From a phage, in sequence record AF039872.1: a stretch of DNA of 861 bases; one strand, 5' to 3'. Positions 1 to 861 of this stretch are shown here, piece after piece. The notes beneath the pieces are model-generated. The model saw only the letters and a list, made by a program, of their open reading frames with translations, ran no database searches and was not told the origin of the DNA. The first letter of the stretch is position 1. The number at the start of each line of letters is the position of its first letter. Position numbers and translations under genes: made by a program.

Positions 1-33
1 CTTGCATGCCTGCAGTCGACTCTAGAGGATCCC
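1..33. other. Cloning-vector polylinker (pUC/M13mp18/19-type multiple cloning site); not biological insert sequence
   Basis: Contiguous restriction sites in canonical pUC order: SphI gcatgc 4-9, PstI ctgcag 10-15, SalI gtcgac 15-20, XbaI tctaga 21-26, BamHI ggatcc 27-32. The string matches the pUC19 HindIII-to-BamHI polylinker from memory except for one missing G (canonical CTGCAGGTCGAC, here ctgcagtcgac). The insert appears to begin at the GATC within or just after the BamHI site (about nt 28-34), consistent with Sau3AI/BamHI-compatible cloning. Confidence 0.85.
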
Positions 34-34
34 G

Positions 35-616
35 TTAGATGAGATTATCTTTATAAAGGATAACAGTTACGTGTGTGGCACAAACTCTCAAATTTCTGGC
101 CAATCTCGTGTTGCTACTGTTATTGATTCTCTTGAGAAGCGTTCTAAGATGCTTAACTTTAAAGAGAAATTCCTCGATAACGGAACCGTGATTGGTCTTA
201 TTCTTGAGACGGATGAAATCCTGAACAAGAAATTGCGTGAGCGTAAACAAGAAGAATTACAACTCGATTATAATCCTAGTACGGGTCAGTCCTCTGTCCT
301 GATTCTAGATGGTGGTATGAAAGCTAAACCGTACTCCCAAATATCCTCTTTTAAAGATCTAGACTTTAAGGAAGACATAGAAGGGTTTAATAAATCTATT
401 TGTCTAGCCTTTGGAGTTCCGCAAGTACTGCTTGATGGTGGTAATAATGCGAATATTCGACCAAACATCGAATTGTTCTATTATATGACTATCATTCCTA
501 TGCTGAACAAACTGACTAGTTCTCTTACTTTCTTTTTTGGTTATAAGATCACTCCTAATACTAAGGGAAGTCGCAGCATTAACACCAAGATAAAGAAGCA
601 GAGGCTAAACATTTAA
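35..616 (+). CDS. Phage portal protein, 5'-truncated fragment (HK97-family-like portal motif block); true N-terminus lies outside the clone
   Basis: The frame of the 71..616 ORF is actually open from nt 26, running through the vector junction with no stop, so the GTG at 71 is an ORF-caller artefact and not a real start. The translation contains ...VLILDGGMKAKPYSQISSFKDLDFKEDIEGFNKSICLAFGVPQVLLDGGNNANIRPNIELFYYMTIIPMLNKL..., which matches the conserved '...kDlDF...ia.AFGVP..LLg...N.sN.e...' block I recall from tailed-phage portal proteins. The stop is TAA at 614-616. Family assignment is from memory and needs an HMM search. Confidence 0.7.
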   Translation, partial: LDEIIFIKDNSYVCGTNSQISGQSRVATVIDSLEKRSKMLNFKEKFLDNGTVIGLILETDEILNKKLRERKQEELQLDYNPSTGQSSVLILDGGMKAKPYSQISSFKDLDFKEDIEGFNKSICLAFGVPQVLLDGGNNANIRPNIELFYYMTIIPMLNKLTSSLTFFFGYKITPNTKGSRSINTKIKKQRLNI

Positions 617-698
617 CCTCAATGGGTAATAATGGTATTATAACCGGTAACGAAGCTCGTTCAAAGCTGAACTGGAGCCATTAGATGATGACAAATGA
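583..698 (+). other. Probable frame-shifted continuation of the portal C-terminus (frame 2 at 583-684, then frame 3 at 669-698); read error or pseudogenisation
   Basis: The frame open over 583-684 translates to HQDKEAEAKHLTSMGNNGIITGNEARSKLNWSH*. The frame over 669-698 translates to ELEPLDDDK* with TGA at 696-698. Joined, '...GIITGNEARSKLELEPLDDDK*' resembles the portal C-terminal signature 'G.iT.NE.R...L.L.P..GGD' as I recall it. The AFGVP-to-NEAR spacing is about 80 aa, which is plausible for this family. Each frame switch is consistent with a single missing base: one between about 540 and 583 (a T6 homopolymer lies at 533-538) and one near 667-672. Confidence 0.45.
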
Positions 699-777
699 AT
701 AAGATTCGTATCCTGCAACGTCGCTGGGTCCGCAACAAGTGTATCCGGTCAAAGAAGTGGGAGACCTAAGGTTCACC

Positions 778-784
778 GAGGGAG
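778..784 (+). promoter_or_regulatory. Shine-Dalgarno-like ribosome-binding site (GAGGGAG) for the downstream ORF
   Basis: Purine-rich GAGGGAG at 778-784, with 6 nt between GGAG (781-784) and the ATG at 791. This spacing is typical of low-GC Gram-positive bacteria and their phages. Confidence 0.35.
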
Positions 785-790
785 ATTAGA

Positions 791-861
791 ATGATGATTA
801 AGTGGGCTAAGGACAATTTTGGTGAAAACTACAGAATCCAAAGCTCCCTGCAACGGTGGCG
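791..861 (+). CDS. Possible 5' end of the next gene downstream of portal (hypothetical protein, 3'-partial, runs off the window)
   Basis: ATG at 791 preceded by the SD-like site; open frame to the window end translating MMIKWAKDNFGENYRIQSSLQRW.... Only 23 codons are visible and this is the presumed low-quality 3' end of a read, so both product and frame are uncertain. By synteny in HK97-like head modules a prohead protease or scaffold gene often follows portal, but the visible residues do not let me confirm this. Confidence 0.3.
   Translation, partial: MMIKWAKDNFGENYRIQSSLQRW

Follow-up and report, generated by a model that had tools for sequence, protein, structure and literature searches.

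The 861-nucleotide stretch of phage DNA held in sequence record AF039872.1, which at its full length we call the window, opens with a succession of restriction sites that resembles a plasmid polylinker. This raises the question of whether its 5' end belongs to any phage genome and, if not, where the phage DNA begins. A restriction-site scan found SphI, PstI, SalI, XbaI and BamHI sites starting at nt 4, 10, 15, 21 and 27, each adjoining the next and in canonical order. The window start, which reads CTTGCATGCCTGCAGTCGACTCTAGAGGATCCC, was aligned locally to the canonical pUC18/19-type multiple cloning site, CTTGCATGCCTGCAGGTCGACTCTAGAGGATCCC, and over nt 1-33 the two agree at 33 of 34 positions, the exception being a single gap. 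By chance, 33 of 34 bases would agree with a given 34-mer at a rate of about 1e-18 per position. The G+C fraction is 0.58 in nt 1-33 versus 0.39 in the remainder of the window. The vector-derived features, all on the plus strand, are these:

1 to 33, plus strand: pUC18/19 (M13mp18/19)-type multiple cloning site, recognized by site scan, alignment and plasmid-record matches.
Start of the window, plus strand: CTT of the HindIII site AAGCTT.
4 to 9, plus strand: SphI site.
10 to 15, plus strand: PstI site.
15 to 20, plus strand: SalI site.
21 to 26, plus strand: XbaI site.
27 to 32, plus strand: BamHI site.
33, plus strand: the next C of the GGATCCCC run, after BamHI.

The canonical polylinker sequence was checked against deposited plasmid records, and our identification of the vector is based on those that carry the same polylinker. 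A blastn search with nt 1-35 against 72,556 plasmid records (PLSDB, 7.3 Gb) matched 34 of them, 27 at a query coverage of at least 80%; in 24 plasmid records, query positions 1-33 correspond to 34 record bases at 97.1% identity (E = 4e-6). One record read directly, U36911.1, presents a pUC19-type context, with M13 -40 and -20 primer sites, the polylinker GCCAAGCTTGCATGCCTGCAGGTCGACTCTAGAGGATCCCCGGGTACCGAGCTCGAATTC from HindIII to EcoRI, a reverse-primer site, the lac operator and lacZ-alpha. The window shares with the polylinker of pUC18, pUC19, M13mp18 and M13mp19 the series of partial HindIII, SphI, PstI, SalI, XbaI and BamHI sites and the C-run of SmaI, and 33 of 34 bases are those of the copies in U36911.1 and GQ149346.1; it differs in that one G of CTGCAGGTCGAC is missing. 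Polylinkers of the pUC type are also found in pGEM-3Z/4Z, pTZ18/19, pK18/19 and other vectors. As the window opens within the HindIII site, pUC18, pUC19, M13 and other derivatives are indistinguishable here. In the pUC19 orientation, going by the U36911.1 sequence, the read start would fall 26 nt past the -40 universal primer. The original prediction of a pUC-type polylinker at nt 1-33, with five sites in canonical order, is thus borne out by the 33 of 34 matching positions and by the 24 plasmid records, and it is confirmed that these 33 nt are leftover cloning-vector sequence, a laboratory artefact that carries no biological feature.

The search also drew attention to the plasmid collection itself. 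Most or all of the queried pUC polylinker is carried by 27 PLSDB records, among them GQ149346.1 (1590-1863, L003), HM037272.1, NZ_CP023686.1 and CP036489.1, and M13 primer sites are present in both records whose flanks were read, GQ149346.1 and U36911.1. Several of the polylinker-bearing records are described as natural isolates, for example E. coli from giant panda gut, and in Bacillus thuringiensis CT-43 the polylinker occurs at 13 places within one record. Coding sequences annotated as hypothetical protein overlie two of the matches, and a coding sequence annotated as phage tail protein overlies one. These occurrences look like vector-derived or untrimmed vector sequence in the reference collection.

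Beyond the polylinker, the window is phage T5 DNA. A megablast search with the entire window found 439 T5-like (Tequintavirus) records among 50,697 phage records, of which the four T5 records were best, at 96.2% identity over query positions 29-838. The match in NC_005859.1 runs from 104898 to 104080 on the minus strand, and it spans the portal gene T5.152 and the start of T5.151, which encodes the head decoration protein pb10. The portal gene (pb7) occupies 104135-105346 of NC_005859.1, minus strand, and has 403 codons. In a base-by-base alignment, window positions 36-566 are identical to it over 531 nt ungapped (100%), position 36 being the second base of codon 152. The in-frame translation of nt 35-565 scored 93.3 bits against the Pfam model PF04860, Phage_portal (gathering threshold 39.1, E = 2.1e-26). 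The match covers profile positions 114-287 of 321, so that the portal domain is present in the window with its middle and C-terminal portions. Relative to the T5 portal gene, the window has codons 152-403 only, and 38 private errors from nt 565 on break the frame. The features of the insert are as follows:

36 to 566, plus strand: error-free part of the insert, portal gene T5.152 (pb7), identical to NC_005859.1 from 104892 downwards on the minus strand; Pfam Phage_portal.
567 to 788, plus strand: remainder of the T5 portal gene to its stop, ridden with errors; the frame is shifted by insertions at about 565 and about 587, and of the native TAA only T-A is left, at 787-788.
791 to 861, plus strand: start of T5.151 (pb10), where the read ends and errors are dense, recognized by alignment to T5.

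The product name of the gene 3' of the portal gene is inconsistent across Tequintavirus records, almost every one of which names the same DNA differently. The names for the pb10 gene include head protein pb10, putative major tail subunit, putative tail protein, Hoc-like head decoration, tail fiber protein and neck whiskers protein.

The quality of the insert sequence is sharply uneven. Positions 36-564 show no difference from T5, while positions 565-860 show 38, namely 19 substitutions, 16 single-base deletions and 3 insertions. Counted in 100-nt bins from nt 565 on, the differences number 2, 7, 15 and 14, and half of them are single-base indels; all 16 single-base deletions lie within nt 671-860. 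Over the same stretch (565-860), T5 and its relative NBSal005 are separated by 3 substitutions and no indels, and nearly all the deviations in the tail are private to the window. They destroy the reading frames of the portal C-terminus and of pb10. This is the pattern of a single-pass read losing resolution, not of evolutionary divergence. The error profile, together with the length of 861 nt, points to single-pass Sanger sequencing as the chemistry. The last bases still align to T5, though poorly, and no second vector junction was found at the 3' end of the window.

The open reading frame listed for this region, nt 71-616 (181 aa), is artefactual at both ends because of the XbaI TAG and the junction at its 5' end and the read frameshift at its 3' end. 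Its in-frame upstream limit is a TAG inside the XbaI site of the vector (window 23-25). Its stop codon, at 614-616, arises from a G inserted at about 565 and an A inserted at about 587, and the native portal protein runs 75 residues further. It had been proposed that the apparent N-terminus of the portal frame was made by the cloning junction; the start of the insert at codon 152 of 403 and the closure of the upstream frame by the XbaI TAG agree with that proposal.

The exact join of vector and phage is harder to place. The junction zone is the following:

29 to 35, plus strand: ATCCCGT, in which the vector accounts for the bases up to C33, and T5 could account for C33-G34.

T35 (or G34 if the vector was T-tailed) is explained by neither vector nor T5 and is a miscalled or added base. 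The window here reads GGATCCC, then GT, then the native TAGATG, and a join at a SmaI end (GGATCCCC followed by native insert) would cost 1 or 2 read errors under the different models. Native T5 reads ...AATAATCAGATAAACTATCGCG TAGATGAG... at this place, also given as ...AAACTATCGCGTAGATG, and has no GATC; NBSal005 reads ...GACTATCGCGTAGATG, likewise without GATC. We scored every pairing of a vector end with a T5 start by its edit distance to window positions 1-70, where the missing polylinker G costs 1 in every model:

GGATCCC joined to GTAGATG (equivalent to GGATCC joined to CGTAGATG): edit distance 2.
Canonical SmaI end GGATCCCC, a T, and TAGATG (T-tailed vector): edit distance 2.
Canonical SmaI end joined to GTAGATG: edit distance 3.
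Filled-in BamHI end GGATC joined to CGCGTAGATG: edit distance 3.
SmaI end joined to CGTAGATG (blunt cut CG^CG): edit distance 4.
BamHI sticky end: edit distance 4.

Several models are level, each costing 1 to 2 errors beyond the missing G, and a filled-in BamHI end with a blunt insert is as parsimonious as the canonical SmaI end. None of the models is error-free, at least one base among 33-35 being a miscall or a base without template, so that more than one exact point and method of ligation fits. Identity to the vector continues through the BamHI hexamer and on to the C-run of SmaI, where blunt or T-tailed ligation most probably joined the insert.

A SmaI-side join leaves room for different histories of the clone. 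Instead of a random shotgun clone, the insert may have been a deliberate subclone or a PCR product, either a product starting TAGATGAG in a T-tailed SmaI vector or an in-frame lacZ-alpha::portal(152-403) fusion. The former would need one substitution only at the junction (SmaI end, T, TAGATG), and for the latter, GGATCCC followed by GTAGATG would set lacZ-alpha in frame with portal codon 152. An in-frame join is expected one time in three, however, and codon 152 is no boundary of a gene or domain: the Pfam match runs from the second residue on and is cut in mid-domain. A deliberate fusion is further opposed by the frame as read, which the XbaI TAG closes owing to the missing G. We regard such a deliberate clone as unlikely; if it were true, the verdict of vector contamination would be unchanged and the history of the clone alone would differ. 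A literature search on the design of T5 shotgun libraries returned nothing relevant, the T5 genome papers lying outside its scope. When the polylinker G is restored in the GGATCCC/GTAGATG join, the lacZ-alpha frame is seen to run into portal codon 152 (...LEDP/VDEIIF...); at a chance of one in three this is probably a coincidence, and we give it no weight.

The missing G is the sole difference from the polylinker. The alignments to the pUC19 polylinker and to the plasmid records bear out the earlier observation that one G is lacking, and they place the loss at the second G of CTGCAGGTCGAC, between nt 15 and 16. It might be a true 1-nt deletion in the copy of the vector that was used, that is, a variant polylinker, and in favor of this, hardly any other error occurs in the 560 nt of read around it. 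Against it, the G is present in all 24 deposited copies that align over window 1-33, and three more copies, which reach nt 31-32, have the extra base too. A polylinker without the G was found in no plasmid record, the three matches of 100% identity spanning nt 15-33 only, 3' of the gap, and an exact scan for the G-less 29-mer did not find it in viral contigs; a naturally G-less variant was rejected on these results. The position also argues against a deletion in the vector. Compressions of bands or peaks in Sanger sequencing are common within the first 20 nt and in GC-rich palindromic stretches such as PstI/SalI, and the missing G lies in just such a stretch, fewer than 20 nt from where the read begins. 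We consider a deletion in the vector improbable and a base-calling error very likely, its cause probably a compression of GG in the palindromic PstI/SalI region. The original prediction had taken the missing G as direct evidence that the read suffers single-base dropouts. Such dropouts do occur, as the 16 single-base deletions in the tail attest, but the missing G lies in the clean early part of the read and is an error of a separate kind, early compression as opposed to 3' decay.

The deviations at the junction and in the polylinker could both be real properties of the clone, as in a lacZ-alpha::portal(152-403) fusion or in a T-vector PCR subclone of the C-terminal part of the portal gene in a variant polylinker. 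To this we assign a low probability, and even then the clone would still be a routine laboratory construct.

The insert had been predicted to be fused to the vector at a GATC, which would make it a Sau3AI, MboI or BglII fragment of phage DNA cloned in the BamHI site, with the insert beginning at the GATC at 28-31. There is indeed a GATC at that place, and the megablast alignment to T5 reaches nt 29. A BamHI/Sau3AI join, however, needs a GATC in the native insert, and T5 has none, the nearest T5 GATC being at window position 356, 320 nt downstream of the junction. The edit distance of 4 compares with 2 to 3 for the SmaI-side models, and GATCCCGTTAGATG occurs in no relative. Nor does the T5 alignment itself lend support: within 7 nt its extension back to nt 29, through TAGA..ATC.CG.TAGATG, takes on both a mismatch and a gap. 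It is due to chance, as is all extension of the alignment into nt 23-35. With no GATC at the junction in either T5 or NBSal005, the sticky-end model is effectively refuted, and we hold it to be very improbable. The GATC at 28-31 belongs to the BamHI site of the vector itself.

The megablast phage alignments as a whole reach 7 to 13 nt into the vector, with query starts at 29 and, in some relatives, at 23. This over-extension comes about because native T5 sequence, TAGACTATCGCG-TAGATG, happens to resemble the vector junction, TAGAGGATCCCGTTAGATG. Taken by themselves, the BLAST boundaries would make the vector part look too short and wrongly suggest a junction at GATC.

Finally, the idea that the 33-mer is native, in an engineered T5 genome or in a natural phage with a polylinker-like sequence, deserves almost no credence, since the polylinker is present at this position in none of the 439 T5-like records (megablast alignments begin at nt 23-29 at the earliest), the junction was absent from viral and genome collections, and it would cut the essential portal gene at codon 152. 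Contiguity of the 33-mer with the downstream sequence, which would have spoken for a native origin, was checked through the junction 22-mer GATCCCGTTAGATGAGATTATC, and exact scans found this 22-mer neither in IMG/VR viral contigs nor in 185,579 bacterial and archaeal species represented by one genome each. The 33-mer is not native. The T5 genome has unrelated sequence in place of the polylinker, ...TATATTTAATAATCAGATAAACTATCGCG.

We are highly confident that the record is an untrimmed single-pass Sanger-type read of a pUC18/19- or M13mp18/19-type clone of T5 DNA, joined beside the SmaI half-site. Under this explanation, the read would have started from a vector primer lying to the HindIII side, passed through the polylinker at nt 1-33 and entered the insert at codon 152 of the T5 portal gene. 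It would have remained accurate for about 530 nt, then decayed, and ended inside the next gene, pb10. The join of insert and vector would lie beside the SmaI half-site (GGATCCC[C]) and be blunt-ended or T-tailed, with no GATC sticky end, and both the missing polylinker G and the odd base at 34-35 would be base-calling errors made early in the read. Vector identity, insert identity, the lack of a native GATC and the error profile are direct observations; the sequencing chemistry, the site and method of ligation, and the view of the missing G as a read error and not a vector mutation are inferred from them. That the record is a read from a clone and not native genome had been anticipated, and the vector polylinker on a T5 insert, with a junction not found in the viral contigs and genomes scanned, is in keeping with this.

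The consequences concern how the record is to be read. The record gives no genomic context upstream of nt 36; the prediction that any such context would be artefactual held, as the sequence there is vector and the native T5 sequence is unrelated to it. No reading should be built on the apparent frameshifts, odd stops or divergence from T5 over the last 300 nt. The content is already known, a synthetic pUC18/19 (M13mp18/19) polylinker on a well-known gene of a model phage, with nothing biologically new in it. What follows is a matter of data hygiene only: nt 1-35 should be masked, nt 36-564 can be trusted as T5 portal gene, and everything after about nt 565 should be distrusted.
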